DNA of 64,000 bases from Candidatus Brockarchaeota archaeon (GTDB lineage Archaea; Thermoproteota; EX4484-205; JAAOZP01): positions 16,542-80,541 of the forward strand of contig JAFNIQ010000001.1 in the NCBI GenBank assembly GCA_017601395.1, written 5' to 3'. Below, piece by piece: positions 15,828 to 45,051 of this stretch. A model generated the notes under the pieces. It was not told where the DNA came from, ran no database searches, and worked only from the letters and a program-made list of their open reading frames with translations. The translations under genes were made by a program, and so were the position numbers. Within the stretch, counting starts at the first letter, position 1, and each line of letters opens with the position of its first letter.

Positions 15828-15853
15828 GAGCTCAAACATAAAATAAATCCGAA

Positions 15854-16009
15854 ATGAAATTCGTACCTCTCCAAAAAGGAAGTACACCAGAGCCTGGTAC
15901 AAGGCCGCTCACATGTTGTGGTAGTAATTTCCATTTTGGAACGTATTGCACGCCAGTAAAGGGGCCGACCCAGATTATCAGCGATATTAAGGCGCTTAGG
16001 GAAGACTAA
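15854..16009 (+). CDS. Unannotated 51-aa small ORF, candidate RiPP precursor peptide (MKFVPLQKGSTPEPGTRPLTCCGSNFHFGTYCTPVKGPTQIISDIKALRED)
   Basis: ATG at 15854. The TAA at 16007-16009 overlaps the ATG (16009-16011) of the radical SAM/SPASM gene as TAATG. Three Cys sit in a Gly/Thr/Ser-rich stretch. A TATA-like box lies upstream. The ORF is below the length cutoff of the ORF track. Confidence 0.4.
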   Translation: MKFVPLQKGSTPEPGTRPLTCCGSNFHFGTYCTPVKGPTQIISDIKALRED

Positions 16010-26171: not shown

Positions 26172-28643
26172 CTAGTAGTGCGATACTGTTATTCTCTTCC
26201 TGAGCTCTGGTTTTGAGAGCGGCCTATCCAGCTTTACCAGAATCCTTTTCTCAACACGCGGGGGAAGGTCGAAGAAGTTATCGCTGAACTCTGCTTTCAC
26301 CCCTCTAATCCTTACTTCGCATGCTTTTACAACATTGTTCGAAACCAGGGTTAGCTCATAGGTTGCACCGTCCTTTCTGCCAAGCTTCATTCTAATTCTA
26401 GGCTTGGGAAGCGTAATATGCTTCACTTTTTCAAGGAATACCACGTCATACCTTGGCTCAGAGTCTTCAGGCTCGAAAACGCATACTAGAAAATTGCTGA
26501 ACCTGTCTTTCACTCTTAACTCGCTTAGGCTTAGCTCCATACAGGGCTTTGAAGAATTCGCCTGTACAACAACCTCCATCTCTACTCCTGCCTTCCTGTT
26601 CCCCTTCAGGTCGAAAGACATGATCCTAAGCCTGCCCTTCACAGGTTTAAGAAGATCATTGCAAACCCAGGCCTCCACCTTATCCTGCTTAACAAGCAGG
26701 CTAACGTTAACGGGGTCGAATGCCCTCTTCACGTAGTAGTATGAAGCCTTAAGGTTACCGTAATAGTCGATCAGGCTCCAGCTGAGCACTGGCCAACAGT
26801 CGTTGAGCTGCCATATCAAAGCTCCCCCCGTCTTAAACTTCCTCCTCCTCCAGTGTTCTACACCCGTCTTCATAGCTTCCCCTTGGTTTATTTGAGTCAA
26901 GTAGACAAACCTGCTCAGGTTTACAGCCAGCTTGAAATGCAACAGAATGAAAAGCCAGAGTCTCTCCTGCCCAAAATGCTGCTTATTATGGAATTCGATG
27001 ACCCTGCTCTGCGGATCCCTGTCCCCGGGAAGAGTGAACCTTCTAATCGTTTCCATCGAGGGTGCCGACTGGAAGCCGAATTCGCTTATGAACCTACCCT
27101 TATCATTAAGGTACTCCGTGTAATCTCTTAGCATAGACCAAACCTCCCAGTTATGCCTGTCTCCCTCGCTTTGCGAATTAGGATCGTCACCCCCATATGG
27201 GCTACTCGGCCAGTAGAAGGTTGCAGGGTCAAGTTTAGAGCAAACCTCTGGAAGTATCTTGTGATAGATCGTCTCGCCATAGAACCTATCCTTCATGCCG
27301 TACCAATGCGCCTTGAACCCCCAGTGATTCTCGTTGTTACCACACCATATTGCTAGGCAAGCGTGATTCCTGAGCCTCCTCACCACTTTCTCAGCCTCCT
27401 TTCTAACTAATTCGAAGAACCATTCTTCCTCAGGGTACTCTGCGCATGCGAACATGAAGTCCTGCCAGACAAGTATCCCCTTCTCGTCGCAAAGCTCGTA
27501 GAAAGCCTCATCCTCATACACACCGCCGCCCCAGACTCTTACCATGTTCATATGCGCCTCCTTCACCCTGCTTAGAAGATAATCGTAAACCTTCCTGCTG
27601 ACCCTAGTTAGGAAGGAGTCTGCAGGAACCCAGTTTACCCCTTTACAGAAAACTGGAACATTGTTAACTCTGAAGAAGAACGTTTTACCCTCTTCATCCT
27701 TCTCCTGAACCACTTCGATCCTTCTTATTCCAACTTTCTTTTTAACCATGTCTAAAACACCCTTCGAGCCCTCAACAACAATCTCCAAGTCGTAAAGGTT
27801 TTGCTCACCATAACCGTTTGGCCACCATAGTTTCGGATTCTGAATGTTAAACTCGATTTTAACATCGTTTAATCCGGGTGAAACATCCACATGTTCCTCC
27901 CTAACCTGTTCTTCGCCGAAACCCTTCACCCGAGTCATCAGCTTCACACCACCCGTTTCGAAGGCCTCTATAGAGACGCTTACACTTATCTTCGAGCTTT
28001 TAAGGTCGCTGCTAAGTTCGCTGGAAAAATGGAAGCTTTCAATCTTACACACATCGTAAGCTTTAAGCTCCACGCTTCGCCAAATCCCTGAGGTTCCCAG
28101 TCTCGGGCCCCAATCCCAGCCGAAGGAGTATTGCGCCTTCCTACCGTAAGCGACTGGGGGATAGAACGCTCCACCCAGCTTAACGCTGCTCTTGTCATAC
28201 ATTTCCTCAAGAACCCTTTTAGGCGAATCAAGCCTAACTACTAGTGTGTTTTTCCCTTCTTTTAAAAGATCTTTAACATTAAACTCATGCTCGTGAAACA
28301 TGTTGGCTGTCCTGCCGACCTCTTTCCCATTGAGCCAGATTGTTGCAAAAGTATCCAAGCCGTGAAACTTGAGCTCAACATGGTCATGGTTGAGAAAGTC
28401 TTTGCCTACGTGAAACTCTTTCATATACCACCAATCCTTATCCTCCACCCAAGCTACCTCAAGCTCGTTCATTCTGAAGAACGGGTCGGGGATCTTTCTA
28501 TTCCTCAAAAGGTCAAGATGGACAACGCCCGGCACGGTTGCCTTCAACCATGGGCCTGAGCTCGGCGGCGTCTTCTCATCTCTCCCGCATTCTTTGAAAA
28601 ACCATTCCCCGTTAAGACTTATGGTTTCCATGAGTTTCCGCAA
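26172..28643 (-). CDS. Glycoside hydrolase family 2 (beta-mannosidase-like)
   Basis: N-terminal GH2 sugar-binding block (WLNGKEVGRTANMFHEHEFNV). The acid/base region …AIWCGNNE… matches the GH2 WxGxNE motif. Length 823 aa, no signal peptide. Confidence 0.75.
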   Translation of the reverse strand: MRKLMETISLNGEWFFKECGRDEKTPPSSGPWLKATVPGVVHLDLLRNRKIPDPFFRMNELEVAWVEDKDWWYMKEFHVGKDFLNHDHVELKFHGLDTFATIWLNGKEVGRTANMFHEHEFNVKDLLKEGKNTLVVRLDSPKRVLEEMYDKSSVKLGGAFYPPVAYGRKAQYSFGWDWGPRLGTSGIWRSVELKAYDVCKIESFHFSSELSSDLKSSKISVSVSIEAFETGGVKLMTRVKGFGEEQVREEHVDVSPGLNDVKIEFNIQNPKLWWPNGYGEQNLYDLEIVVEGSKGVLDMVKKKVGIRRIEVVQEKDEEGKTFFFRVNNVPVFCKGVNWVPADSFLTRVSRKVYDYLLSRVKEAHMNMVRVWGGGVYEDEAFYELCDEKGILVWQDFMFACAEYPEEEWFFELVRKEAEKVVRRLRNHACLAIWCGNNENHWGFKAHWYGMKDRFYGETIYHKILPEVCSKLDPATFYWPSSPYGGDDPNSQSEGDRHNWEVWSMLRDYTEYLNDKGRFISEFGFQSAPSMETIRRFTLPGDRDPQSRVIEFHNKQHFGQERLWLFILLHFKLAVNLSRFVYLTQINQGEAMKTGVEHWRRRKFKTGGALIWQLNDCWPVLSWSLIDYYGNLKASYYYVKRAFDPVNVSLLVKQDKVEAWVCNDLLKPVKGRLRIMSFDLKGNRKAGVEMEVVVQANSSKPCMELSLSELRVKDRFSNFLVCVFEPEDSEPRYDVVFLEKVKHITLPKPRIRMKLGRKDGATYELTLVSNNVVKACEVRIRGVKAEFSDNFFDLPPRVEKRILVKLDRPLSKPELRKRITVSHY

Positions 28644-28779: not shown

Positions 28780-30369
28780 TTGGGAAGCCAACGGGAAAAA
28801 GGGAAATTGTCCAGAGAAGCCTCTTCAAAAAGGCAGGATGGCGGAAAGAAAATAGTGTTAACCGCGTCTGCAGTGGAAATGAGCGATTTCAACCTGAACC
28901 CGTTCATAGCCTTTTCAGCAGGGTTCCCCCTGCCGTTTTCTAAGAGGCTCCTCAGGGAAAGGCTTTATCCTCCGCCACCGTTAAACGATGATGGAACCGT
29001 TAAGCACGCCCCCTACGGCTTGAGAAAAATAGAGTCTCTCCTTATAGACGAGTTTGGCGAGGAGAATGTTGCAACCGTTTACCCAACCATGCTTGAAATG
29101 TTCGTTGGGAAGGAAACAAGGGTTGTAGGGATTTCTTCCATGGATCCGTTGGGGATAGGCTTTGTAAGCAGGACCTACACGAGCCTTATCGGTATAGACG
29201 GTAAGCCCGTCACGAGAGTGGAGTTTGAAACACTTCTTTCCAACCCTGTTTTCAAGAAGTATAGGCCTAAAGTAGTTTTGGGCGGAAGCGGTGCTTGGCA
29301 GGTTGTCAAGACAGGGGTTCAGCAGAAGCTAGGGATAGACAGCGTAGTGATGGGCGAGGCTGAGGAGGATGTTGTAAACCTCTTCAGAAAAGCCTTGAAC
29401 GGTGAAGAGCTTCCGAAGCAGCTGGTGTGTAGCAGGCCTGAGCTTGAAAAAGTTCCGTGCATTAAGAAAGCATCCCTGTTCGGTGTTGTTGAAGTCACGC
29501 GGGGATGCGGAAGAGGATGTCAATTCTGCTCTCCGACGCTTAGACAAAGATACTCCTTTCCTCTGGAACACGTATTGAAAGAAGTTGACATAAACGCTAG
29601 AAGCGGAACCAGGATGATAACTCTTCAGACGGACGATATATTTCTGTATAAGGCGGATTCTAGTTTCACGCCGAACGGGGATGCGGTGTTTGAACTGGTC
29701 GACTCAGTAGCTAAAGTTAAAGGAGTAAAGTATATTCAGGTGGCGCACGCGGCTCTTACGCCCGTAGTCTATGATCATGGGCTTGTTGAAAAAATAGCGC
29801 CCACGCTCGTTGAGAAGTCCAGATGGACTTACTTGAACAATCAGAGGTATGCGACTTTCGAAATAGGTATTGAAACCGGGAGTGTCAGACTGATAGAGAA
29901 ATACATGAGGGGGAAGGTGCTGCCATACACGCCTGAACAGTGGCCGGATATTGTGGTTCAAGCTCTTGGGATACTTAACGACAACCAGATATATCCTTTA
30001 GCAACACTCGTAATGGGTCTTCCCACTGAAAACGAGGAGGACGTTACTGCAACCCTTGAGCTGCTCGACAGGTTGAAGAATAATAGGGTCTTCTTCGTCC
30101 CCCTGCTCTTCACATCTGAGGAGGATTGCATTTTAAACAGGGAGAACCATGCCGACTTGCATAGTTTATCAGAGCTTCACTGGGATGTTTTCTCAACGTG
30201 TTGGAGGCACAACGTGAAAACATGGAGGGGAAACGGCTTTCAACATTTGATCAGAATCGGAGGATTATTCGCCTACTTGGTTTACTACAGGCGGCTGCAC
30301 GGCCCCAAGGTTCTAAAACATATTCTAAAGGTTTCAGGTTGGGGTGAAGAACTGCAAGAGAGGTTCTAA
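28780..30369 (+). CDS. B12-binding-domain radical SAM protein
   Basis: N-terminal Rossmann-like B12-binding region (KKIVLTASAV…) and VTRGCGRGCQFCSP (CxxxCxxC). The exact start is uncertain. Confidence 0.75.
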   Translation: MGSQREKGKLSREASSKRQDGGKKIVLTASAVEMSDFNLNPFIAFSAGFPLPFSKRLLRERLYPPPPLNDDGTVKHAPYGLRKIESLLIDEFGEENVATVYPTMLEMFVGKETRVVGISSMDPLGIGFVSRTYTSLIGIDGKPVTRVEFETLLSNPVFKKYRPKVVLGGSGAWQVVKTGVQQKLGIDSVVMGEAEEDVVNLFRKALNGEELPKQLVCSRPELEKVPCIKKASLFGVVEVTRGCGRGCQFCSPTLRQRYSFPLEHVLKEVDINARSGTRMITLQTDDIFLYKADSSFTPNGDAVFELVDSVAKVKGVKYIQVAHAALTPVVYDHGLVEKIAPTLVEKSRWTYLNNQRYATFEIGIETGSVRLIEKYMRGKVLPYTPEQWPDIVVQALGILNDNQIYPLATLVMGLPTENEEDVTATLELLDRLKNNRVFFVPLLFTSEEDCILNRENHADLHSLSELHWDVFSTCWRHNVKTWRGNGFQHLIRIGGLFAYLVYYRRLHGPKVLKHILKVSGWGEELQERF

Positions 30370-30719
30370 GGGTCTGCAATCATATCTCTAAGCGCTTTAT
30401 CAACTATTCTCGCTATCTCGACTAGCCCAACCAGTATGCAGGGCACTCCCCTGAGCCTAGCCAAGTCAGCCGTCATCTGGTCCTGCGTGATGATTACGAG
30501 GCTGTTTCTAGCCGCGTGTTCAACTATTATCTCGTCCTCCGCTCCCTTTAAACCCACGTCGTCAACCGTCTGAGCGTCCCACCCAAGTGTTTTAAGAAAC
30601 GGCTTTAAACCGGAGTACATTTCGTCCAATAGTATCTTGACGTTTTTCACGAAGAGTATCTTGTTCAGGCTTTTCTTTAATCTTTTCTGTACTAAAGTTG
30701 AAAACAATCTTAAACGCAA
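30366..30719 (-). CDS. Mut7-C/DUF82-like (PIN-like) small protein. The true start is probably internal, at V/M near KILLDEM.
   Basis: KILLDEMYSGLKPFLKTLGWD…DEIIVEHAARNSLVIITQDQ…GVPCIL matches the Mut7-C RNase-domain pattern (LxDxMLGxLxRxLRxLGYD…DxxIL…A…R…LTRD). Confidence 0.5.
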   Translation of the reverse strand: MRLRLFSTLVQKRLKKSLNKILFVKNVKILLDEMYSGLKPFLKTLGWDAQTVDDVGLKGAEDEIIVEHAARNSLVIITQDQMTADLARLRGVPCILVGLVEIARIVDKALRDMIADP

Positions 30720-30745
30720 AAGTCTTATAAAAGAGAGGCTGCATT

Positions 30746-31879
30746 ATGATTCGGCGTCGGATGTGGGTTCTCAGAAGCGATGCGATAACCGTGTGGAACA
30801 ATAAGGATGTTCAGAAAAGGCTCTCATGGTATAGGGCTGTTATGAAAAACCTTAAACCAGCCAAATTCCTAATAGCTAAAAGCATCCCGGCACAGGTCGG
30901 GGTTAAGGATCTAGAGAACATGAAGGAGGAGGAGCTCTGGAGGCTTCATGAAAAGCTTAGTTTAGAGTTCAGGAGAATCCATGAGTCTGTGAAGACAGGT
31001 AAGGCTGGTGAGACCACCCCTACAGAAGTAAGCTTCCTAGATGTAAAGATAATGCTCTCCGAAAGACTCGTTGAACACTGCGAATTTTGCGAGAGAAGAT
31101 GCAGAGTGAACCGGAGGAGGGGGGAGCTGGGGTTCTGCAGAGTAGGGTATGTAAGCAGGGTTTCAACATGGTTCCACCACTTCGGGGAGGAGGGACCGTT
31201 AATAGGCGAGGGAGGCTCCGGAACAATATTCTTCGCAGGCTGCAACTTCGGGCCTTGCGTCTACTGTCAGAACTGGGATATCTCTTCAGACCCTGGGAAC
31301 GGGGGCGAGGTTAATCCGAGAACACTGGCGCTAATCAGCAGGAGGCTTAGCGCTGAGAATGCTGCAAACATAAACTACGTGGGGGGAGACCCGACGCCGA
31401 ATCTCCATACAATACTCTCATCCCTTAAACATTTGGATGTAAACATTCCGCAGCTCTGGAACAGCAACATGTATTGCAGCACTGAGGCTATGAGGCTTCT
31501 CGCTGAAGTCATAGACATATGGCTACCGGACTTCAAGTATGGCAGCGACGATTGCGCCAGAAGGCTTTCAAAGGTGGAAAAATATTTCGAAGTGGTGGCG
31601 AGAAACCACAGGATTGCCTACGAGAACGGCGATATGATAATAAGACACCTGGTTCTTCCTAACCATCTAGAGTGTTGCACCAAGCCTGTTTTAAAATGGA
31701 TATCTGAAAACACTCCTAACGTTCTCGTGAACATAATGGGCCAGTATCATCCGGATTACTTGGTGGCGAGAAACCCTGGAGCGTATCCAGATATCGCTAG
31801 AAGGCCTAGTGCGAGAGAGATGCAGGAAGCCTATGATTACGCGAGAAGGCTTAACATAGTTTTCGAACCCGTGTCCTAG
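30746..31879 (+). CDS. Radical SAM protein of the PflX-like (COG1313, PFL-activating-enzyme-related) family
   Basis: N-terminal CEFCERRCRVNRRRGELGFC Cys cluster. The GSGTIFFAGCNFGPCVYCQNWDIS block shows a Cx4Cx2C spacing. Length 377 aa. Confidence 0.7.
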   Translation: MIRRRMWVLRSDAITVWNNKDVQKRLSWYRAVMKNLKPAKFLIAKSIPAQVGVKDLENMKEEELWRLHEKLSLEFRRIHESVKTGKAGETTPTEVSFLDVKIMLSERLVEHCEFCERRCRVNRRRGELGFCRVGYVSRVSTWFHHFGEEGPLIGEGGSGTIFFAGCNFGPCVYCQNWDISSDPGNGGEVNPRTLALISRRLSAENAANINYVGGDPTPNLHTILSSLKHLDVNIPQLWNSNMYCSTEAMRLLAEVIDIWLPDFKYGSDDCARRLSKVEKYFEVVARNHRIAYENGDMIIRHLVLPNHLECCTKPVLKWISENTPNVLVNIMGQYHPDYLVARNPGAYPDIARRPSAREMQEAYDYARRLNIVFEPVS

Positions 31880-32802
31880 CTAACCCGGTTATCCCAATAT
31901 GGTTTTTTCAACATAATTGCCTCCATAAACCTCCTTTTTAAATCATCATCGCCGCCGCCTGAACGCATCAACCCCACTATGTCTACCAAATTATCGTTTC
32001 TCAACAAGCAGGGCTTCAGCCTCCCGTCGCAAGTAACCCTTAGCTTGTAGCAGTGGGAGCAGAAGTCAGGATTCCCAGTTGGCGAGACTATTTCGACTAG
32101 AACTGTCCTTCCGTTTCTGGGGAGCATGTAGATGGAGCGTTGTCCAGTGTAGTTGACAGTTTTCCCGGCTGATTTTGAGGAGATGGTTTTTTCAACATCC
32201 TTAAGGCTGACGTGAAACTCTTGGAAAACCTTCTCGCCACCCGGAATCGGCTGGAGCTCTATGAGCTGGAGAACAGCCCCAATGGAGCCAGCGTAATCCA
32301 GCATCTCTTCAACATCCTCCTCGTTAACCCCTTTCAGAACAACCATGTTTATCTTAACCGGGTTTAGGCCAGTCTCTAATGCGGCATTTATCCCTTTGAA
32401 AACCCTTGAAACATCCCCACCCCCAGTTATCCGGCTGTACTTTGAAGAATCGAGACTAGGAAGGTTAACGTTAACTCTTGCTAGTCCCGCATCCTTAAGG
32501 TCCCCAGCGTATTCCTCAAGGAGGACACCGTTTGTAACGAGCGAAACCTCGCTGACGAGCGGGGAGATCGCTTTCACCATGTCGACAACGTCTTCTCTAA
32601 CCAATGGTTCCCCACCCGTTATCTTAACAGTTTCAACGCCTGTGCTGCTAGCGACCTCGACGATTTTTCTAACCTCGTTTAGAGTCATGCTTCCCCTAGG
32701 AGGAGGGTTCCATTCCCTGTGGCAGAAGAAGCAATTAAGGTTGCAGTTATCCGTAACAGATATCCTGAGGTTTTTCAAGGGTCTGCCGGCCTGTTGAAAC
32801 AT
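31876..32802 (-). CDS. moaA: GTP 3',8-cyclase MoaA (molybdenum cofactor biosynthesis radical SAM)
   Basis: LRISVTDNCNLNCFFC (CxxxCxxC) near residue 20 and C-terminal auxiliary-cluster Cys (CSHCYKLRVTCDGRLKPC). Length 308 aa. Confidence 0.85.
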   Translation of the reverse strand: MFQQAGRPLKNLRISVTDNCNLNCFFCHREWNPPPRGSMTLNEVRKIVEVASSTGVETVKITGGEPLVREDVVDMVKAISPLVSEVSLVTNGVLLEEYAGDLKDAGLARVNVNLPSLDSSKYSRITGGGDVSRVFKGINAALETGLNPVKINMVVLKGVNEEDVEEMLDYAGSIGAVLQLIELQPIPGGEKVFQEFHVSLKDVEKTISSKSAGKTVNYTGQRSIYMLPRNGRTVLVEIVSPTGNPDFCSHCYKLRVTCDGRLKPCLLRNDNLVDIVGLMRSGGGDDDLKRRFMEAIMLKKPYWDNRVS

Positions 32803-32858: not shown

Positions 32859-34964
32859 ATGTTTAAGCTTTACAAAACGCCTCCTGAAAACGTCTTTAGT
32901 TTAAAAAAAGGATGGCCTAAGGATTTTTATACCCTAAAACTTTATAAGTTCGCAATAAGTATTTTATGTGGTGAAAAGAGTTTGAGTGAGACTAAAACGG
33001 TCTCCGTCATAGAAGAGTTAAAAGCAGGTTTTACCGTTAAGGCAATAATCCTTGCAATAGTCTTCGGCATTATAGGACTCTTCGCAAACATAGCTACATG
33101 GTGGGGCCTAGGGATAAGCTTGGAACCTGTTTTTGCAGGTAGGGTAGGGGCGCCAATATACCCCCCATACGGGCTCGTTTTTATACTGGTTCTTGTAAGC
33201 CTATTCATGAAGGCCCTGACAATCCAGGAGATTGCGGTGATCACTACAATAGCGTTCATAACTGCAGACAGCCCGTTCGTCATCGGCGCCTTCTTACAAT
33301 TCATATTTGCAGGAACCTACTTGGTTAAGACCAACCCGAACGTGGAGGCCCTGCTTAAGTATTACCCGCCGCTGTGGACCCCGGGCGACTATGACCTGAT
33401 CGCCCCAGCTTGGGCGGGAGGGGCAGCCGTACCATTGGGCAGGTTGCTCCCCTACCTAGCGTTCTGGATGATAATGATAATCATTTGGTGTCTAATGATG
33501 GTTTTCCAAGCCGCGTTAATCAGGCTGCAGCTGATTAAAAAAGAGAGGCTCCCGTTCCCAATGATGATTCCGATTAACGAGATGCTTTCACAGCATCAGA
33601 AAGGAACCTTTACGCAATACATGAAGAAGCTTCCGTTCATAGCAGGGATAATACTAGGATGCATAATAGGAATACTTGGGGCTTTAAACTATATTATTAA
33701 ATTCACGACAGTGTTCTTCGCATTCGGACAGTTCTACCAGCAATGGTTCGCCGACCTTATGAGCTCGATCTCTCAAAACACGATACAATCCTGGTGGATG
33801 TTCATACCCGCGGATGCTGCAATCATGTACCTTGCCCCCTTAGACATTCTTTCCTCAATAGTCATCTGGCTGTTCATCTTCCAAATTCTGTTCCCACTGG
33901 TCCTCGTCAACACTGGGGTGATAACGCCTAACACGAACCCGGCTGGTACAGGTCCCTTCCCATGGCTAAACTTCAGCTACTACTGGGCCCCGTTGGCGAT
34001 AGGCATCTGGACAATAGTCTTCGGCTACAAGACTTATGCTGAGAGCTTGAAGAAGAAGGAGTTTGCCCCGGGTGAGCTCCCCAATTCAATCGCATGGTAC
34101 GGCTTCGCAGCCACATGGCTTCTCTGGCTAATCCTGTGGGTCATATTCGGAGCAAACGTTCTCCCGTTGCTAGTGGGCTTCATCGTGTGGTTCCTGTATA
34201 CGACGGGTATGGTTGCTGTCTGCGGGGCAACAGGTACCTGGGTAGCTGGAGGAGACGCTGTTCCCGCGAGATTCTTAGCGTGGGGAGTAGGCACTGGAAT
34301 AGGCCTGTTCCCAGCAAGCGGTGCGGCTGCTAAAACTCAATCCGCGTGGGCAACGATGGCCGGCGTCAGCATAACTGCCAGCATGGGTGGAGTGATTCAT
34401 CAGAACACGCATTCCGCTTGGGCCTACACGTCAACCTACACGATGGTTGAACCAGCTAAGGTGAAGGAAACAGACATTCTAAAGTCGCACATCCTAGGAA
34501 TACTTATAACGGTGCTTATCGGTGTTCCAGTTGCCGTCTACATAATCTACGGGACTGGAATAGGCCAGTTGAAGGCCTGGGGCCTCGGCAGCGGTGCAAA
34601 CATCACCGGCTTCCAAGTGCCGTGGGTAGTGGCTGATTCAGCACCGCCTGCGGGCTTCCACTGGTGGATGTTCCCACTGGCTATAGTCGTGGTCGGCATC
34701 TTGTTCTTCCTGAGAGCTAGGTTCGCATGGTTCTTCTTCAGCCCGTATGCGTTATTCTTCTACTCTGGAATGTGGCTGATAAACGCCGGGGTAGCGTGGA
34801 TACTTAAACTCATAACGCTTAAAGTGTTCGGAGCAAAGGCCTACGAAGAGGTTGGAGTACCCGTAGCAATAGGCTTCATGGTTGGCGTCACTCTCATGGC
34901 CACTATAATCATGGGAGTGAACTCTGCTACCGGAGGAATATCCGTAGGACCGACAGGCTATTAG
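32859..34964 (+). CDS. Hypothetical giant polytopic membrane protein (701 aa, more than 14 TM), paralogue A; family not assigned
   Basis: Hydrophobic helices run the full length. It shares an E-R-L-P-F-P…I motif with the 639-aa protein at 39638..41557. Confidence 0.6.
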   Translation: MFKLYKTPPENVFSLKKGWPKDFYTLKLYKFAISILCGEKSLSETKTVSVIEELKAGFTVKAIILAIVFGIIGLFANIATWWGLGISLEPVFAGRVGAPIYPPYGLVFILVLVSLFMKALTIQEIAVITTIAFITADSPFVIGAFLQFIFAGTYLVKTNPNVEALLKYYPPLWTPGDYDLIAPAWAGGAAVPLGRLLPYLAFWMIMIIIWCLMMVFQAALIRLQLIKKERLPFPMMIPINEMLSQHQKGTFTQYMKKLPFIAGIILGCIIGILGALNYIIKFTTVFFAFGQFYQQWFADLMSSISQNTIQSWWMFIPADAAIMYLAPLDILSSIVIWLFIFQILFPLVLVNTGVITPNTNPAGTGPFPWLNFSYYWAPLAIGIWTIVFGYKTYAESLKKKEFAPGELPNSIAWYGFAATWLLWLILWVIFGANVLPLLVGFIVWFLYTTGMVAVCGATGTWVAGGDAVPARFLAWGVGTGIGLFPASGAAAKTQSAWATMAGVSITASMGGVIHQNTHSAWAYTSTYTMVEPAKVKETDILKSHILGILITVLIGVPVAVYIIYGTGIGQLKAWGLGSGANITGFQVPWVVADSAPPAGFHWWMFPLAIVVVGILFFLRARFAWFFFSPYALFFYSGMWLINAGVAWILKLITLKVFGAKAYEEVGVPVAIGFMVGVTLMATIIMGVNSATGGISVGPTGY

Positions 34965-34975
34965 ATCCAAAACCT

Positions 34976-34991
34976 CTTTTTTTGTTTTTTT
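34976..34991 (+). terminator. Oligo-T tract (ctttttttgttttttt) 12 nt after the stop of the 701-aa membrane protein; archaeal-type intrinsic terminator candidate
   Basis: A T-rich run of about 15 nt directly downstream of the TAG at 34962-34964. Confidence 0.4.
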
Positions 34992-35120
34992 GAGCTAAAG
35001 GCTTAGTTGCTTCCATTCGCCTTAAGCCTCCCTATCGACCCTTGAGGGCATGGGCTTTAAAAACATTAGGAGGTTTTAACGACGTAAAGTTTAAATCAAT
35101 CTTGATGGAGTTCCACGTTA

Positions 35121-38100
35121 ATGATAGTGGTTCGACGAAAGCATTTGCTTGTTATTGTGTTTTTAATGATGCTTGTTGCCCCTCTCATAGTAATACAGGG
35201 GAATCGGGAGGCCGTTGAAGAAAAAACTTGGTTAAACCAGGAAGCCCCATTGGTTTCAGCAGACAGGATAAGGGACTATGTAGCGTTGTTTTCGTCAATA
35301 CAGTCAAGGTTCACAGGCTATCCTGGGTCCCTAGAAGCAGCCCAAATCATAATGGACAAGTTTAACGAATCTGGGCTGAAAGTTAGCCTTTTCGAATACA
35401 CGGTGCTGGTTCCGTATGACTCAGGCTCATACATGAAAGTGGGCGGCAGAATGATTAAGGCCTATGGGCTCTACCCTAATGTCGTAGCCACGGGTTTGAA
35501 AAAGGCTTCCGGAAGGCTTGTCTACGCTGGTCACGGTACTCCGGAGGAGCTTAGGGGACTTAACGTGAATGGTAACATAGTCCTCCTCGAGTTTAACTCA
35601 GGGTCTGCATGGGTAGACATGGTTAAGCTTGGTGCATCTGGAATCGTTTTCCTGGAGGACGGTGACACGAATCGCTTTGAAGCATTGAGAAAAATCTCTT
35701 CTGTCCCACTGGATACTCCAAGAATATATGTAGTGGGCCAGGAAGCGTCTCAGCTCAGAGAAATCGCTAGAAATAATCCGGATGCAGAGCTTTTTAACGG
35801 TATGGAGTGGAGAGAAGTTGAGGCTGTTAACGTGATTGGGGAAATGAAGGGTGTCGAAGACCCGTCTAAAGTAATCATTATAACGGTGAACTATGACTCC
35901 GGGTCGATTGTCCCAGGGATCGCTCCGGGGGCTGATGAAGCCATAGGTATTTCTGTCATGCTCGAATTCATCAGATCTTTGAAACAGCAGGGCCTCTCGC
36001 CGAGATACACAGTGCTTTTTATAGCGATGTCTGGACATTGGCAGGCCCTAGCCGGTGCTAGAAGCTTCGTGGAACAATTCTACTTTAACAATTCCGCTAT
36101 AGGCAGGGAAGTCTTCCCGTATCTCGTCATAGACATTAAGATTAGCTCAGGAAGCCCGCACTTAAACCTTGTTTACAGCGGCATGATGTACTCCATTAAT
36201 ACTCAGTATATTGCAAGCAGGTTCAGAGACCTCCGAATATTTTTTGCAAATTCAATTAAATCTTTCATTAACTCTTTCCCAAGCTATGGCAAAAAGGTTT
36301 TGACCAGCAACCTATACCCCGGCCTCTACGGCATCGCGTATGACTCGGCCAGTCCCGGTTTTCAGAAGGGCCTTGCCTTCAAGCATATTCTCGAAATGGA
36401 GCCTTTTGAGCTGGCTAACAGCATTGGGCTCGGAATAATTACTTTCGACGACTTCAGGTATCGCGTTTTCACCCCGTCTGACAGGCTGGATTTCATCGAT
36501 TTCCAGAACGTCATACCTCAAGCACAGCTAACATTCCAGATCCTGTTCGACCTGTTGAATGCTCCGGTTGAAGAATGGTATCCAGGCAGTTGGGAGGGTT
36601 TAAGACCGTTGAGAATGGGTGAAACCTACACTGGAGTTGGTTTCACTGTGTTAAAGGTTGAAGTAGTTGAATACGACCCTACTACGCCAGGCCTATACAG
36701 CCCGGTTTCAAACGCTTTCGTCACGGTGGGGAGCACGTTGGACCAATTCACGCTGATGTTTTCCAAATCGGATTCCTCAGGCTTCGCAGTGTTCAGGGGT
36801 TTAAGGCCATATCCTGAGGCGACGACTGCGTTGCAAACCCCTATTCAGAGTTACGTGATCGACGAGGAGGGGAGAATAATCTATGCTCCAGACAGGGGAC
36901 AGCATGGTGCCGGAACATATCCTTCAAGCGTAACGATAGTCTCACCTGAACAATTCACGAGGAACGTTGTGTTTAAATGCGGGAGCGCCGTCATGTTCGA
37001 TTTAACCGACCCGGACACTCTGCAGGCTGCAGTCTCTCCAAGCTCGATGTTTGGAACCACGAATGCTTATTCGGCGCAACTCAGGAATTACGGTGGCTAC
37101 GAGACCCCGCTAACGATAAGCGTGATGGTGATGCAGATACCTGGATACTCTATTCTAGACTCGTTCGGCTACGAGTTCGACCCCATTCTGTCGGTTGCAC
37201 AGGTTTACGCCCCGCCCCGCATCAGGTTCGGCTTCGTTGTTAAAAGCACGTCTATGGCTAAAACGGTTGCAGTCTATACGAATGTGACTCTGCAGAACCA
37301 GGATGGGTACGGGTATTATTTGGGTAAAGAGGGGGACAGGCTGCTCGTAAAGGGTGGAATACCCGGCATGTTCATGGAGATGTTGACATTAGCATATGGC
37401 AGGTATTTGGCTCAAGCAGACATTCAAGTCCTGGACCCAAAGACGATGGAGAATTTGAATTATGCGATAATGTTTAACCAGACGCTTCTTCAGACGGCTT
37501 CGAAAAAGGATTACAGCGGGTTCTTGACGAGCGCTTTAATGGCTTGGGGGTTCTCCAGCAAGGCTTACCAAAGCTCTTTGAGCGTTGTCCGCGACGCGGT
37601 TACGAGCATAATTCTCGTATTCGCTTTAGCAATACCCTTCATCCTTCTGTTTTCCTCCCTTGTTTACAATTTGAGCAGCGGCTTCAGAAGCGTCGCCCTT
37701 ACTCTTGCTGTGGCGCTGTCCGTGGCGTTGCTTTTAACAGTATTCCACCCGGGTTTTGGGTTAGCGGTAAACGTGCCTGCAATATTCATAGGGACACTGA
37801 TAGTTGCCCTGGTTATTCCAGTGATGTTCTTCCTGTTCTCCAACTTCTCCACAGGGCTTTCCAGGTTGAGGAGAGAAGTTCTTGGTGCACACTTCCTTGA
37901 GAGAAGCGGATTCGACGTTTCGTTTTCAGCCGTATCCATAGGAATAGGCAACTTGAAGAAGCGTAAGTTTAGAACAGTATTAACGATGCTGTGCATAGTA
38001 ATCATAAGTTTCTCGCTTTCGTCTCTGACTTCCGTGACGGAGATAAGGGCTTTAAGAGTTACCCCGACGCCCACCGAGGTTACTTGCAACGGAGTGCTGC

Positions 38101-39638
38101 TGAGAACAGCTAACTTCGCCCCGTTAAACAGGAAGTTGATCGACCTAGTGTCAACCTACATATCTGGCAAGACACTTTATGCTCCGAGGTACTGGGTTTA
38201 TCTTCCTTCCACTCCTGGAGAGGGGACTGCTGGCACAATAGTGATATCCTCTGAGAAAAGCAAGGCTTTGATCTACGCGGCTGTCGGAATAAGCCCTGTA
38301 GAGTTGAAAGCATCTTTCAAGCAGTTTGAAAAAATACTTTTAGAAGGATCCATGTTTAAAGAAGAAGAGGTTTTCTCAGCATTATTGCCGAACAGTCTTG
38401 CGGAAAGCCTGGAGGTGAAGACAGGCGAATATGTCTGGGTTAACGGCTTCCGCTTAACAGTAGCAGGCATACTTAACACGACTGCAATTCTAGCATATGT
38501 GAAGGATTCAGATGGTTTCGTGGACGTCCTGCCCATGGACACGTATATTCTTTCGAACGAGAGAACTCCTCCCCGTGCTGAGGCAGCGTTGAGCCCAGGA
38601 TCCGTAATATTCGTGCCCGCCGGCCTGGTTGAACTGATTCCGGAGGCATGCTTGACAAGCGTTTTCATACCGGCAGACGGGATGGTTTTCGAGGAACTTT
38701 ACGAGAAATGCGGCGAGGTTTTCTCAGCTTTCGAAGGTTTAAACATTTATCTGACGTATAACGGCACTGTATACCGGTTCTCCAAGGAGAACGTTATCTC
38801 GCTATTCGGCTTCCAGTTCATTCTAATACCCATGGTGATCGCGGGGCTGATAACTATGTCGACGATTCTAGGCGGAGTCATGGAGAGAATACGGGAGGGC
38901 TACATATATAGCAGTCTAGGCCTAGCACCGGTTCAAGTAGGCTTAATGTTCTTCGGGGAGAACATCATATACGCTATCGTAGGCTCGATGACGGGCTATC
39001 TCGGCGGAATCTCAGCCTCATACTTGACGAGGAAAATAGGCTTGATAAACCTCCCTGTGAACTACACGTCGTCATTCGTCATGATAGCTGTCGGTCTGGT
39101 GATAGTGCTGGTTCTGGCAGCGTCGCTCTACCCGTTCTACAGAGTCTCCGTCACAGTAACCCCGTCTCTAGAGAGGAAGTGGCGTCTCCAGACTAAGCCG
39201 AAGGGAGACTCGTGGGACATACCGATACCTTTCCGTATAAAGGAGGATGATAGGGCTGCAGGAATGGCTGTTTTCCTCCATGAGTATCTCTGGAACAAGA
39301 GGATAGAGAGGGCAGGAGTCTTCTCCATTGAAAACGTTGAGGTCAGCAAGATAGAGTCTGGAATTAGTGTTAAGTCAAGAGTATGGCTGGCGCCATTCGA
39401 GCAGAACATAAAGCAGGATATGAACATAGTGATATTGAAGAGCAAGACGGAGCAGAATTTCCTTATTTTAATGAATCTAACCAGGGTGTCCGGACCCTAC
39501 GACTCATGGGTCAGGTTCAACTATCCCTTTATTGATGAGATAAGGAAGCAGATGCTGATATGGAACGTTCTCAATCCAGAGGAGCGGGAGAAATACATAC
39601 GTATGGCTAGGGATCGTAGCCTGGTAGGTGAGAAATAA
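35121..39638 (+). CDS. Giant membrane protein (1505 aa): signal/anchor, M28-peptidase-like (possibly non-catalytic) ectodomain, large beta-rich middle region, and an FtsX-like permease module (TM plus extracytoplasmic domain plus 3 TM)
   Basis: M28-like blocks (NVIGEMKGVEDPSKVIIITVNYDSGS…GADEAIGISVMLEF). An FtsX-type N-terminal TM (LKKRKFRTVLTMLCIVIISFSLS). FtsX C-terminal helices (…VIAGLITMSTILGGVMERIREGYIYSSLGLAPVQVGLMFFGENIIYAIVG…). Confidence 0.7.
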   Translation: MIVVRRKHLLVIVFLMMLVAPLIVIQGNREAVEEKTWLNQEAPLVSADRIRDYVALFSSIQSRFTGYPGSLEAAQIIMDKFNESGLKVSLFEYTVLVPYDSGSYMKVGGRMIKAYGLYPNVVATGLKKASGRLVYAGHGTPEELRGLNVNGNIVLLEFNSGSAWVDMVKLGASGIVFLEDGDTNRFEALRKISSVPLDTPRIYVVGQEASQLREIARNNPDAELFNGMEWREVEAVNVIGEMKGVEDPSKVIIITVNYDSGSIVPGIAPGADEAIGISVMLEFIRSLKQQGLSPRYTVLFIAMSGHWQALAGARSFVEQFYFNNSAIGREVFPYLVIDIKISSGSPHLNLVYSGMMYSINTQYIASRFRDLRIFFANSIKSFINSFPSYGKKVLTSNLYPGLYGIAYDSASPGFQKGLAFKHILEMEPFELANSIGLGIITFDDFRYRVFTPSDRLDFIDFQNVIPQAQLTFQILFDLLNAPVEEWYPGSWEGLRPLRMGETYTGVGFTVLKVEVVEYDPTTPGLYSPVSNAFVTVGSTLDQFTLMFSKSDSSGFAVFRGLRPYPEATTALQTPIQSYVIDEEGRIIYAPDRGQHGAGTYPSSVTIVSPEQFTRNVVFKCGSAVMFDLTDPDTLQAAVSPSSMFGTTNAYSAQLRNYGGYETPLTISVMVMQIPGYSILDSFGYEFDPILSVAQVYAPPRIRFGFVVKSTSMAKTVAVYTNVTLQNQDGYGYYLGKEGDRLLVKGGIPGMFMEMLTLAYGRYLAQADIQVLDPKTMENLNYAIMFNQTLLQTASKKDYSGFLTSALMAWGFSSKAYQSSLSVVRDAVTSIILVFALAIPFILLFSSLVYNLSSGFRSVALTLAVALSVALLLTVFHPGFGLAVNVPAIFIGTLIVALVIPVMFFLFSNFSTGLSRLRREVLGAHFLERSGFDVSFSAVSIGIGNLKKRKFRTVLTMLCIVIISFSLSSLTSVTEIRALRVTPTPTEVTCNGVLLRTANFAPLNRKLIDLVSTYISGKTLYAPRYWVYLPSTPGEGTAGTIVISSEKSKALIYAAVGISPVELKASFKQFEKILLEGSMFKEEEVFSALLPNSLAESLEVKTGEYVWVNGFRLTVAGILNTTAILAYVKDSDGFVDVLPMDTYILSNERTPPRAEAALSPGSVIFVPAGLVELIPEACLTSVFIPADGMVFEELYEKCGEVFSAFEGLNIYLTYNGTVYRFSKENVISLFGFQFILIPMVIAGLITMSTILGGVMERIREGYIYSSLGLAPVQVGLMFFGENIIYAIVGSMTGYLGGISASYLTRKIGLINLPVNYTSSFVMIAVGLVIVLVLAASLYPFYRVSVTVTPSLERKWRLQTKPKGDSWDIPIPFRIKEDDRAAGMAVFLHEYLWNKRIERAGVFSIENVEVSKIESGISVKSRVWLAPFEQNIKQDMNIVILKSKTEQNFLILMNLTRVSGPYDSWVRFNYPFIDEIRKQMLIWNVLNPEEREKYIRMARDRSLVGEK

Positions 39639-41557
39639 TGGAAGAGGCTGCACGTGAAAAAGAAGCCTTCATCCCCGGGCTGACAATCGTATCGGTCTCC
39701 GCAGTATTGTTCGGGCTTGTGGTAATCGTGCCCGCAATAATCTATTTAGGCTGGGCTGTCGGCTCTTTAGGTGGAACCGAGAGGTTCATCCCGGTTTTCG
39801 TCACAATCCTCCTATTCACCGAGGCGGGGAGGCTCGTTAAGAGGTATATAACATCGCAAGAGGCTTACATAATATACTTCATGCTTCAAGCCATAGCCCT
39901 ATGGTTCGTCGGCGGAGGAATGTTCGGCGACTTCCTTATAAGGTATTACTACAGGTCCGCCCCTTACACTATCCTATATGGTATAGCTGAAAAGCTTCCC
40001 ACATGGTATGTCCCTGAGCTCGGGAGCTACGGCCCACTCCACAGGACTTTCCTCTCCCCAGACTGGGTGATTCCAATATCGATTTCTCTAGCTGTTAACG
40101 TTTGCGTGCTGATGATAGATTACGGTGTTTCTTTCATAACAAACATGCTCTACATAGAGATAGAGAAGCTCCCGTTCCCCGTCGCACCCATAGACTACCA
40201 GGCGATTTCAACCCTTACTGAGAGAACACCTGAGAAAATAATGTACTTCTCTTTCGCCGCTGTGATAAGCTTCATCTACGAGTTCGCCATCTACGGGATT
40301 CCAAACATAACCTCGATTTTCCTAGGCAGGGCTATAACCGTCATACCGTATCCCTGGGTGGACTTAACCACGGGGATTGAAAGAATCCTGCCGGGAGCAG
40401 TTTTTGCAGTCGGAACCGATATTGCTCAATACATGGTGGGCTGGCTTATCCCGTTTAACGCCGCGGTATGGATGTTCATCGGGTCGGTGGCAGTCTGGGT
40501 TTTCGGAAACTCTATAGCGCTCAGGATTGACCATCCCTACTTCAGCATGTGGCAGAGAGAATGGACTTACGGCGCGTCAATCCAATGGTGGTGGCAGAGA
40601 GCAATCTACGACCTGTGGGCAAGTCCACAAGTAGGTTTAACACTCGGGATCGCGCTTGGAATACTTGCTGTAGGAGCCAAAAACATTGCGCGAGCAATCC
40701 TCTCCCTCAGACATCTTTCGGCAGAGCAGCTTAAAACATCATACTTGCCTTTCAGCTGGATAGTTGCTTTAATCGCCGCCGGGTCTATAGGCGGGTTGCT
40801 TGTTTCAGTCTCCCTTGCCCCAGAACTATGGTTCGTCTGGGTGGTGACCTGGACGATAGTTCCGTTTATTCAAGGTATTCTGACAGCCAGGGCTACTGCT
40901 GAAACCGGGTTATCTGTCACCATACCCTACATTAGGGAAGCGTTCTTCGTTTCTTTCACAAGGCCTGGAGACGTGGTCCCGTGGGTGGTTCCGACGCATG
41001 TGACAAGCAGCGCCGGGATAATTACGCACAGGGTCTACGTGGCTAAGCTCCTGAAAGTCAGGCCCCTAGACTACTACAAGGCCTACCTCATATTCTTCAT
41101 AGTGGCTATTCTCCTATCCCTGCTGTACGTTTCAATATTCTGGGCGATGACGCCCATACCTTCTGCCTTCTACCCGTACGCCAGCTACTCCTGGCCTATT
41201 TCAGCCCTCTACTTCTCCCTATGGGTCTCTAGGTCGATCGAGATTTTCAAGGTGGACGTGATAGCTATCTCAAGCGTCTTATCCTTCATAATGGTCGTCG
41301 TCTCCTCCCGTTTCCCAACGCAATACTTCTCCCCAATAGGCTTCCTATACGGTTTTCAAAACATTCCCGCTTACACGCTTCCACCATTGATCGGAGCCCT
41401 GATCGGAAAATGGCTTGAGAGGAGAATGGGTAAGGATAAATGGGTTGTGCGGAGAGGAGTGATAATCGCCGGAACATTCTGCGGGATCGCGCTTGCAGTA
41501 GCAGCCGCTGTCGCCATCACTATAATGGGGAGAGCGATAACAGCTAAACCATTCTAA
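39638..41557 (+). CDS. Hypothetical giant polytopic membrane protein (639 aa), paralogue B. The start overlaps the upstream stop (TAATG).
   Basis: About 14 TM helices. It shares an E-K-L-P-F-P-V-A-P-I motif and overall architecture with the protein at 32859..34964. Confidence 0.6.
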   Translation: MEEAAREKEAFIPGLTIVSVSAVLFGLVVIVPAIIYLGWAVGSLGGTERFIPVFVTILLFTEAGRLVKRYITSQEAYIIYFMLQAIALWFVGGGMFGDFLIRYYYRSAPYTILYGIAEKLPTWYVPELGSYGPLHRTFLSPDWVIPISISLAVNVCVLMIDYGVSFITNMLYIEIEKLPFPVAPIDYQAISTLTERTPEKIMYFSFAAVISFIYEFAIYGIPNITSIFLGRAITVIPYPWVDLTTGIERILPGAVFAVGTDIAQYMVGWLIPFNAAVWMFIGSVAVWVFGNSIALRIDHPYFSMWQREWTYGASIQWWWQRAIYDLWASPQVGLTLGIALGILAVGAKNIARAILSLRHLSAEQLKTSYLPFSWIVALIAAGSIGGLLVSVSLAPELWFVWVVTWTIVPFIQGILTARATAETGLSVTIPYIREAFFVSFTRPGDVVPWVVPTHVTSSAGIITHRVYVAKLLKVRPLDYYKAYLIFFIVAILLSLLYVSIFWAMTPIPSAFYPYASYSWPISALYFSLWVSRSIEIFKVDVIAISSVLSFIMVVVSSRFPTQYFSPIGFLYGFQNIPAYTLPPLIGALIGKWLERRMGKDKWVVRRGVIIAGTFCGIALAVAAAVAITIMGRAITAKPF

Positions 41558-42660: not shown

Positions 42661-42695
42661 TTTCTATATTGCGGATCGTAGTCTTTTCCACTCAT

Positions 42696-43810: not shown

Positions 43811-43920
43811 CCATTTCTACCTAATTTACATCCAGCGACTTGCTTACATATATGTTTTTGAATTATGTTTTAATCAACCTTTAACGGATATTCAAAAGTG
43901 GCATCGTATTAAACTCAGAT

Positions 43921-45051
43921 TTAGAATATGTCTTCCGCGTAGGCTACACCTGCCGCATGTATGCCCCATTCTCGATATTTTAAGCATGTGGCTGAGTAAT
44001 AAGCCGTATAGATGGTTCCGTCATCAAGCTGGACACTACTTGGGTATCCGCAGTCAGCGTCTGTCGCATAAGAGACTAAGGCGGCTCTCCTGTTAAACAT
44101 CCATGATCGGCCGCCGTCGAGGCTTATCACTGCATGAACCCCGTAAGGCACCCTCCGGTGTCCAAAGGTTAGCAAAACCTTCCCGCTCTTAAGGTAACAA
44201 AGGTCCCCGGGGTGTTCACCGCCAACAGTCACCTGTTTAGGCTCAGACCATGTGTAACCCATGTCTCGAGAGCGACTGATGGCAACGCATTCGCCGCCAC
44301 CCTGAGCATGAGGTCCGCGGAGGGCTGCCAACAAGTCTCCATCGGGTAATTGTAGAAGAGCAGTTTCATTATATCCTTTAGCGACGATGGTTAAATCCTT
44401 CCATGTGAAACCATTGTCTTCGGAGCGTAGAATATAGCTGGTCTCTATCGAGCCTTCTACAGTATATTCTTGAGAGTAAACAGACATAAGAATAGTTCCA
44501 TCATCTGTCTGAAGCATTCTCCCATAGGGTGAAACCGCCCCTTTAAACGGAAACTCCAGCGGCTCGGGCTTACTCCACTCCCTACCACCGTTGGTCGACC
44601 TCGTTACGAACATTTGCCACCTCATCCCATTCCTCTTCCACAACCCATTCTCATAACCCCAGACTCTTACAAAGGCAACCAGCAGAGTACCGTCCTTCAA
44701 TTGACATAAGGCCGGATTCCTATCATCAGTCTGAGAAACGGTTACAATTCTTGGCATTGTCCATGTCTTACCCCCGTCTTTAGATAACGAGAGCTCTAAG
44801 CGGCCTCGTTGACCAACATGGTAATCCCCCATGCGGAAGACAACTGCTAGGTTTCCGTCACGGAGTTTAGTCAAAACCGGGAAATATCCACCCATAGGAG
44901 TTATAAGATATCTTCTCACCCGCTTGAGGGAACCAACCATCGCCTCATCGCAAAACTGCATTCCATACTTGAACTCCTCATCGGCTTTCATGTTTTTCCA
45001 CGGCCAACCGTTTTTCCGTATGCGGGCGTTCTTATTAATTTTGATGTTCAT
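43921..45051 (-). CDS. BNR/Asp-box repeat beta-propeller protein (sialidase/exo-alpha-sialidase-like glycosidase fold)
   Basis: Five Asp-box motifs (SKDGGKTW, STNGGREW, SEDNGFTW, SRDMGYTW, SLDGGRSW) spaced about 60 aa apart. Confidence 0.7.
   Translation of the reverse strand: MNIKINKNARIRKNGWPWKNMKADEEFKYGMQFCDEAMVGSLKRVRRYLITPMGGYFPVLTKLRDGNLAVVFRMGDYHVGQRGRLELSLSKDGGKTWTMPRIVTVSQTDDRNPALCQLKDGTLLVAFVRVWGYENGLWKRNGMRWQMFVTRSTNGGREWSKPEPLEFPFKGAVSPYGRMLQTDDGTILMSVYSQEYTVEGSIETSYILRSEDNGFTWKDLTIVAKGYNETALLQLPDGDLLAALRGPHAQGGGECVAISRSRDMGYTWSEPKQVTVGGEHPGDLCYLKSGKVLLTFGHRRVPYGVHAVISLDGGRSWMFNRRAALVSYATDADCGYPSSVQLDDGTIYTAYYSATCLKYREWGIHAAGVAYAEDIF

Follow-up and report, generated by a model that had tools for sequence, protein, structure and literature searches.

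A gene module shared by archaea and bacteria combines predicted OPT/YSL-fold membrane proteins with a giant FtsX protein carrying a putative pseudo-peptidase ectodomain

The window analysed here is a 64,000-nt stretch of a Candidatus Brockarchaeota contig (JAFNIQ010000001.1, positions 16,542 to 80,541 of the forward strand; all coordinates below are those of the window), with a nucleotide identity of ~97% to a contig from an uncultured-archaeon metagenome-assembled genome (MAG) and of ~88.5% to a Candidatus Brockarchaeota MAG. It carries three consecutive genes, here called A, B and C, in which two large membrane proteins flank a giant protein with peptidase-like and permease-like domains. The initial annotation of this DNA had singled out a short motif, E-(K/R)-L-P-F-P, common to A and C, and proposed that the two proteins are related subunits of one assembly, possibly a hetero-dimeric channel, flanking a peptidase/permease fusion. 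The genes, the motifs and the spacer between A and B are positioned as follows.

32859..34964, forward strand: gene A, an open reading frame (ORF) of 701 aa, DUF6785 family, predicted OPT/YSL fold
33543..33560, forward strand: E-R-L-P-F-P motif of A, residues 229-234 of the 701-aa ORF
34965..35120, forward strand: A-B intergenic spacer, 156 nt, read from the sequence
35121..39638, forward strand: gene B, ORF of 1505 aa, with Pfam Peptidase_M28 and FtsX matches
39638..41557, forward strand: gene C, ORF of 639 aa, predicted divergent OPT-family protein
40163..40180, forward strand: E-K-L-P-F-P motif of C, residues 176-181

The motif was found in both proteins letter for letter as first described: ERLPFP in A, in the context ...IRLQLIKKERLPFPMMIPINEML... 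(also written ...KKERLPFPMMIPINEML...), and EKLPFP in C, in the context ...YIEIEKLPFPVAPIDYQAIS... (also written ...IEIEKLPFPVAPIDYQ...). Its relative position was indeed similar, falling at residue 188 of 660 in A, once the start codon was corrected, and at residue 176 of 639 in C. The correction concerns an in-frame TTG at position 32982, preceded by GGTGA 8 nt upstream, which gives a protein of 660 aa with the N-terminus M-S-E-T-K. This start fits the family consensus, the homologs of A being 654-669 aa long; the first 41 codons of the longer ORF (window 32859-32984) are absent from relatives, and the AlphaFold2 (AF2) model showed residues 1-51 of the 701-aa ORF as disordered. The TTG at 32982, and not the listed ATG, is probably the true start of A. 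In the AF2 models the motif sits between a long transmembrane (TM) helix (193-228 in A, 141-175 in C) and a short helix (234-247 in A, 183-195 in C).

The initial annotation had proposed pairwise alignment as the check on its claim, and at this level significance was not reached. The motif was the top-scoring ungapped hexamer between A and C (BLOSUM62 score 31), but 149 of 500 composition-preserving shuffles (30%) attained the same score, so that the motif alone is not beyond chance. BLASTP ranked the motif region first, yet with E = 0.44, and the local Smith-Waterman score fell inside the shuffle distribution (z = -0.3); an end-free global alignment was modestly high (z = 3.2, with 0/200 shuffles as good). 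Judged by the refuting condition that the initial annotation had set for itself, the idea would have failed.

The relationship emerged from the comparison of whole families. Family alignments of 23 A relatives and 53 C relatives, compared by hhalign, matched with a probability of 98.5% and E 4e-15 over 565 collinear columns extending from the N- to the C-terminus, and set ERLPFP on EKLPFP, placing the two motifs in register. In control comparisons on a local set-up, the true pair gave 1e-13, against E ~0.5 for reversed profiles and E of at least 1e-3 for 25-column block shuffles. Within each family the motif was near-invariant and formed the most conserved stretch, a family signature: in the A family (23 members) E229 was found in 23/23, L231 in 22/23, P232 in 22/23, F233 in 23/23 and P234 in 23/23, and in the C family (53 members) E176 was found in 52/53, L178 in 53/53, P179 in 49/53, F180 in 50/53 and P181 in 53/53.

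The predicted structures led to the same result. AF2 models of A (pLDDT 83, pTM 0.86) and C (pLDDT 90, pTM 0.89) both contained more than 20 helices, and the more than 14 TM helices initially ascribed to each protein are plausible on these models. Searched against the PDB by Foldseek, both models matched barley Yellow Stripe 1, HvYS1 (7WST/7WSR): A with E 3.5e-9 and TM-scores of 0.55/0.63, and C with E 3.8e-10 and TM-scores of 0.65/0.70, all other PDB matches of either model remaining at a probability < 0.2. Both models showed the YS-type fold, with core and scaffold domains as in HvYS1, which is the only solved structure of the OPT family and for which its authors found no structural homologs (PMC9691689). 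Because the profile and fold evidence is decisive, the pairwise result was set aside; A and C are real, very distant paralogs, recognizable at the profile and fold level only. A chance resemblance of two hydrophobic proteins without common ancestry, which the BLASTP, Smith-Waterman and hexamer-shuffle results taken by themselves would allow as the source of the motif, is refuted by the profile-profile match with its clean controls, by the identical and unique fold match of the two models, and by the invariance of the motif in each family together with its in-register alignment.

Sequence searches place the two proteins in the OPT superfamily by way of their relatives. A passed Pfam DUF6785 (52.4-52.6 bits vs a cutoff of 25); DUF6784 was not detected in A at E <= 1, and the C-terminus of A is conserved and aligns to that of C. 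DUF6784 was present in the partners of B in Bathyarchaeia, Latescibacterota and Armatimonadota. Since the bacterial partners of B are canonical DUF6785+DUF6784 proteins carrying both domains (E down to 1e-123), DUF6785 (the N-terminal ~500 aa) and DUF6784 (the C-terminal ~100 aa) are two parts of a single protein with the OPT fold. Neither A nor C matched Pfam OPT at E <= 1; a match was found for 22 of the 53 C relatives (best E 3.5e-17), and one DUF6785 protein, at locus L086, gave a faint one, so that the sequence case for OPT membership of A and C is an indirect one, made via relatives. An NCBIfam scan returned nothing informative. With A in DUF6785, and A and C sharing homology and fold, DUF6785 is therefore assigned to the OPT fold, and on the strength of the models we regard A and C as two deeply diverged OPT-superfamily proteins with an OPT/YSL fold. 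The A-family profile drew 905 clusters at 50% identity from 1.84 billion representatives, and no paper found in a literature search mentions DUF6785.

HvYS1 also suggests where the motif may lie in the fold. The 'YS core' of this protein consists of TM1-H1, TM2, TM3 and H3 plus an inverted repeat, and is held by a scaffold domain through which the homodimer forms, the C-terminal strand being involved as well; an elevator-like mechanism is discussed by its authors (PMC9691689). Residues 195-205 of the HvYS1 chain read K-L-V-Y-P-S-G-T-A-T-A (KLVYPSG at 195-201), and the pattern (K/R)-L-x-(F/Y)-P is common to A, C and HvYS1; the 'S-G' that continues the motif in YSL proteins is absent from A and C. 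Judged from this pattern, the order of helices and the relative position, the motif of A and C probably corresponds to the K-L-V-Y-P-S-G stretch, which would put it at the junction between TM3 and the near-horizontal H3 'arm helix' that links core to scaffold. PDB sequence searches with the A and C family profiles, with the OPT/YSL relative P0072 and with a profile of the motif region did not reach HvYS1.

In the protein between A and C, B, the following parts were located.

35289..36212, forward strand: PA/M28-like ectodomain of B, degenerate, ~residues 57-364, placed by PDB sequence matches
38817..39149, forward strand: FtsX-type permease unit of B, residues 1233-1343, placed by Pfam FtsX
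39138..39635, forward strand: conserved C-terminal cytoplasmic domain of B, ~residues 1340-1505

By hydropathy, B begins with TM1 (residues 9-27), after which come ~800 aa of ectodomain, three TM helices (830-906) and a cytoplasmic linker; TM5 (952-970) then leads into a second ectodomain, of ~255 aa, followed by the FtsX bundle (~1226-1336) and a cytoplasmic tail of ~165 aa. Pfam Peptidase_M28 matched residues 237-319 with 34.6 bits vs a cutoff of 21.3, covering positions 1-79 of the 193 in the profile only. In the PDB, the large ectodomain matched Aeromonas aminopeptidase (E 3.5e-6), GCPII (1e-5) and the transferrin receptor (2.5e-3), and the PA-containing aminopeptidase 2ek8 matched over residues 57-317.

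We checked the M28 residues of B against the general base of the Aeromonas enzyme, Glu151, and its zinc ligands His97, Asp117, Glu152, Asp179 and His256. In the window protein, His97 is matched by N257, the general base Glu151 by H306 and the zinc ligand Glu152 by W307, and the His256 position, mapped by reading the 'HTxxD' motif, is Phe. The column assumed to hold Asp179 is Lys in the window protein and Asp in 63 of the 78 orthologs in the alignment, HMMER alternatively pairing D338, two residues earlier than the Lys column. In the same 78 orthologs, His takes the Glu151 position 74 times, an aromatic residue (Phe, Tyr or Trp) the Glu152 position 67 times, Tyr, Phe or Asn the His97 position 53 times, and Thr or Ser the bridging-Asp position 23 times. 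Because substitutions have removed the catalytic Glu and most of the zinc ligands throughout these orthologs, B is predicted to be a pseudo-peptidase in the manner of the transferrin receptor or nicastrin and not an active M28 enzyme, as which it should not be classified; the peptidase/permease fusion proposed at first is thus not one in the enzymatic sense. There are hints that the dead site was repurposed for binding or other chemistry, and has not simply decayed. At window 36036-36044 (B residues 306-308), a near-invariant His lies in a conserved S/A-G/S-H-aromatic-Q stretch, and Asp259 is invariant.

At the other end of B, Pfam FtsX matched with E 4.6e-11 (43.2 bits vs a cutoff of 25.5), and LolC weakly matched the TM region of the unit (E 0.024). 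A coupling-helix segment of the form E-R-x-R-E...G-L-x-P is cytoplasmic and aligned to that of LolC, with E1255, R1256, R1258, E1259, G1267, L1268 and P1270 invariant; MacB_PCD (PF12704) gave no match in B. Its sequence marks the C-terminal unit as a genuine MacB/LolC-type FtsX module. We also considered B as an internally duplicated 'double FtsX' and rejected this at the sequence level, since hhalign detected no resemblance between the first TM cluster (residues 815-915) and the FtsX unit (E 0.42); the two are similar in topology alone. The C-terminal domain had no Pfam match and contains residues that are invariant across four distant orthologs, P1360-K-G-D1363, W1365, R1455, R1475-K-Q1477 and W1481 among others.

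The association of the three genes extends far beyond the window. A scan of a genome collection with B gave 124 relatives, of which 80 were kept, all from MAGs. They occurred in Brockarchaeota-like archaea, other Thermoproteota and Bathyarchaeia, and, among bacteria, in Omnitrophota, Latescibacterota, Armatimonadota, Elusimicrobia, Dependentiae, Planctomycetota, Deltaproteobacteria and others. Of 85 loci annotated for A-type and C-type genes with hidden Markov models, 72 contain a C-type gene, 38 contain an A-type gene, 30 contain the two together and 80 contain at least one of them, so that B has an OPT-superfamily neighbour in 80/85 loci across >10 phyla. Two of the five exceptions have part of the flank missing (L048 ends at B and L070 begins within it). 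Both A and C were found in 20/21 archaeal loci and in most loci of Latescibacterota. Gene order varied (A-B-C in the window, L005 and L087; B-C-A in L001-3) around a constant B-C core, whose two genes, in 40 of 72 loci, overlap or lie <= 30 nt apart. In the window, the stop codon of B overlaps the start codon of C in TAATG, an arrangement that suggests translational coupling of C to B. The link that was originally drawn between A, C and the middle gene therefore holds in archaea and bacteria alike and fits one functional module: A, B and C form a module conserved from archaea to bacteria.

When all neighbours of the module were clustered, no other universal partner appeared, only lineage-specific ones such as a beta-CASP gene in Omnitrophota-type loci. 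In 21 bacterial loci, the gene immediately preceding B, and co-oriented with it, encodes a TPR protein of ~175 aa whose signal resembles that of a lipoprotein (…LAGGCS…; for example L004:5069-5608, and in L017, L023 and L026). This protein may add a further envelope component to the module in bacteria. A second large FtsX-related protein of 945-1060 aa, weakly similar to B, adjoins B at L001:503-3340, L013:6429-9398 and L077:16401-19595. At L086:4553-8695, DUF6785 A-type and C-type genes stand side by side and divergent, with no B-type gene on the 12.7-kb contig. Behind B, in place of an OPT-fold gene, L029 carries a convergent, unrelated Asp-Al_Ex/TrkA_C permease (13809-15416, reverse strand) and L031 a convergent hydrophobic ORF (14380-16020, reverse strand); such ORFs are ~540 aa long in Chthonomonas/Fimbriimonadaceae-type loci, and none turned up in L034, a locus of this type. 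A literature search combining FtsX, M28 and OPT found no description of the module; a paper on Fervidibacter was set aside as such a description, M28 and OPT being only separate annotations there.

An FtsX unit of this type raises the question of an ATPase. Five of the six ABC ATPases found close to B (within 3 kb) are mutually similar MacB/LolD-type proteins, all from bacterial loci, where they lie immediately upstream of B (three Deltaproteobacteria loci) or downstream of C (two uncultured-bacterium loci). These five are ~50% identical to an ATPase encoded elsewhere in the window, where no MacB/LolD/FtsE-type ATPase adjoins B itself.

56259..56945, reverse strand: MacB-type ATPase of a conventional MacB operon
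54980..56257, reverse strand: FtsX+MacB_PCD permease of the same conventional MacB operon
53581..54987, reverse strand: rhomboid-domain protein of 467 aa, following the MacB permease

By its sequence, the ATPase at 56259..56945 may be a shared energiser for B.

A reading in which a peptidase feeds an importer is weakened because B cannot cleave peptides, and the tight coupling of B and C suggests a complex in which the ectodomain of B serves the OPT-type subunit or subunits by binding or gating a ligand. We lean, with modest confidence, towards B being a surface receptor or gate coupled to elevator-type OPT importers, C and/or A. As an extracytoplasmic receptor or gate, B would display its dead PA/M28 ectodomain on the MacB/LolC-type FtsX unit, possibly powered by a MacB/LolD-type ATPase encoded elsewhere. 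It would capture peptide-like or chelate-like ligands and pass them to the OPT-type proteins C and/or A, which would import them as proton-coupled elevator transporters. C would be made in step with B through the overlapping stop and start codons, and the E-(K/R)-L-P-F-P motif would serve as a hinge or anchor for the elevator movement.

Several observations weigh against this reading. Complex, import direction and substrate, like the energy coupling, are inferred here, and no prokaryotic OPT had been biochemically characterised as of a 2011 review (PMC3061005). The partnership of B with A and C is flexible, because some lineages carry only one of them or neither: C is the sole partner in Omnitrophota, Deltaproteobacteria and Dependentiae, A is the usual sole partner in Armatimonadota, and the remaining three of the five exceptional loci, of the Chthonomonas type, have neither A nor C. 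In the window, T-runs follow right behind the stop codon of A and TATA-like elements (TTTAAAAA / TTTAAAT) stand ahead of B, so that the spacer between A and B may hold a putative terminator plus promoter, A seemingly having a promoter of its own. Only 6/85 loci have an ABC ATPase no more than 3 kb from B, and the candidate in the window belongs to its own MacB operon, 15 kb away. As to structure, a 'double MacB' pseudo-dimer of B has topology alone in its favour, and the residue-level register of the motif with KLVYPSG of HvYS1 was not obtained from sequence searches.

A further reading, which we hold only tentatively, sees the module as a previously unrecognised type of hybrid transporter, in which a MacB-like mechanotransducer bearing the pseudo-peptidase receptor ectodomain is physically docked to one or two OPT-fold elevators (C and/or A). 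Such a machine would link capture outside the cell, either ATP-driven or conformational, to secondary-active import, and would be common to archaea such as Brockarchaeota and Bathyarchaeia and to many uncultured bacterial phyla.

Less probable than the receptor or gate reading, in our estimate, is that the proteins are co-regulated yet physically independent, A and C acting as stand-alone OPT-type importers (of oligopeptides, for example) and B as an independent surface protein or ABC permease, clustered with them for one physiological task such as peptide scavenging. OPT/YSL proteins can work without accessory subunits, as the HvYS1 homodimer does (PMC9691689); the DUF6785 and C-type genes of L086 occur without an adjoining B, A apparently has its own promoter, and partner content differs by lineage. 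Against independence speaks the adjacency of B and C, which is kept in archaea and in no fewer than 8 bacterial phyla, the two genes overlapping or nearly abutting in 40/72 loci; linkage of this degree is more typical of subunits of a complex. B, its catalytic site gone, is moreover unable to release peptides itself.

Characterised systems of the MacB/LolC/FtsX type carry out mechanotransmission on extracytoplasmic substrates, and not import, and this counts in favour of an export or envelope-biogenesis machine. The OPT-fold proteins would then move a peptide-like or lipid-linked molecule outward, and B, with a MacB/LolD-type ATPase, would extract or expel it at the outer membrane face in the way of LolCDE and MacB. 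The FtsX domain of B with its LolC-like coupling segment, the five loci with a MacB/LolD-type ATPase within 3 kb of B, and the TPR lipoprotein directly upstream of B in 21 bacterial loci, a potential envelope adaptor, would all suit such a machine. We nevertheless consider it improbable: the characterised OPT/YSL members are all importers (PMC3061005, PMC9691689), the module occurs also in archaea, which are without an outer membrane, and no biosynthetic genes are conserved around it.

The original picture, with A and C forming a hetero-dimeric channel on either side of a peptidase/permease fusion, now looks very improbable, for although A and C are paralogs, occur together in nearly all archaeal loci and both keep a conserved short C-terminal tail past the last helix, and although HvYS1 dimerises via its scaffold domain and C-terminal strand (PMC9691689), their predicted fold points to a secondary transporter of the elevator type (OPT/YSL) with core, scaffold and sealed cavity, not to a pore, many lineages have only one of them, and the M28 catalytic residues are lost. 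A heterodimer of A and C as transporters is conceivable, because HvYS1 forms a homodimer through its scaffold domain, and cannot be obligatory, because in many bacteria B has just one of the two, C or A, beside it.

The reading of B as a receptor or gate for OPT-type importers can be set beside several known systems. The OPT/YSL family (PF03169, TC 2.A.67; HvYS1 7WSR/7WST) shares its fold with A and C, whose sequence identity to HvYS1 is only 11-15%. The NPG and KIPPR motifs, described for many OPTs and not as universal (PMC3061005), are missing here: neither NPG nor K[ILVM]PPR, known from the peptide-transporting clade of eukaryotes, occurs in A or in C, and the YSL 'PSG' continuation is likewise lacking. 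For no OPT did we find a description of tight linkage to a giant FtsX/M28-like protein. Within DUF6785/DUF6784, A is a divergent archaeal member (52 bits) in which DUF6784 was not detected. With the type VII ABC systems MacB, LolCDE and FtsEX, B has in common the FtsX domain, the unit of TM helix, ectodomain and three TM helices, the coupling-helix segment and, in some lineages, an adjoining ATPase. It differs from them in its length of ~1500 aa, an extra N-terminal TM helix, the 800-aa ectodomain, a three-TM module that is not FtsX-like, the missing MacB_PCD match, the lack of an adjoining ATPase in 79/85 loci, a 165-aa C-terminal domain of no known family, and partners with a secondary-transporter fold.

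Transferrin receptor 1 and nicastrin resemble B in holding an M28-like fold with a PA region outside the membrane, the di-zinc catalytic residues being lost; similarity of nicastrin to B stayed below threshold (Pfam E 0.07-0.14). B differs from both in being prokaryotic, in its fusion to FtsX and in the conserved His at the general-base position. The ectodomain of B may act as receptor or gatekeeper. TRAP/TTT systems provide an analogy only: in them, substrate passes from a binding module outside the cytoplasm to a secondary transporter of the elevator type. They are related to the present proteins in neither sequence nor fold, and the putative binding module here is membrane-anchored and MacB-like. 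The OPT/YSL, FtsX and M28 folds are thus known individually, and what was absent from the literature searched is DUF6785/DUF6784 as an OPT fold, a family-wide pseudo-peptidase B, and a conserved OPT-FtsX module.

These results give a fold, and a probable role as OPT/YSL-type transporters, to DUF6785 and DUF6784, together ~900 sequence clusters. The proteins annotated as 'M28 peptidase/FtsX' in many uncultured archaea and bacteria would be pseudo-peptidases, and metabolic reconstructions in which they figure as extracellular peptidases would accordingly be wrong. The linked partner B offers a concrete handle for finding the substrates of prokaryotic OPT proteins, and, if the complex is real, it would represent a new way to couple an extracytoplasmic receptor to an elevator transporter.

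The surroundings of the module in the window contain the following further genes.

26172..28643, upstream of the module: GH2-like ORF of 823 aa
28780..30369, forward strand: ORF with radical-SAM signature, from reading of the translation
30366..30719, reverse strand: small ORF of 117 aa, from reading of the translation
30746..31879, forward strand: ORF with radical-SAM signature, from reading of the translation
31876..32802, reverse strand: MoaA-like ORF, from reading of the translation
43921..45051, reverse strand: BNR/sialidase-like repeat protein, downstream neighbour of the module

The radical-SAM signatures upstream of A (28780-32802) are of the CxxxCxxC type and were recognized by eye in the translations. 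Downstream of the module, the reverse-strand region 41572-45051 encodes a 362-aa protein that had no Pfam match. A gene of the URO-D family lies within a few kb of the module in the window (47364-48461, reverse strand) as well as in three other loci (L001:14068-14367, L003:13206-13505 and L087:17649-18076), a recurrence near archaeal modules that may be mere synteny. Further away, G+C content dips to 0.39 at 16001-18000, against ~0.47 in the rest of the window. The sialidase-like and GH2-like neighbours suggest a glycan-degrading lifestyle of the host.

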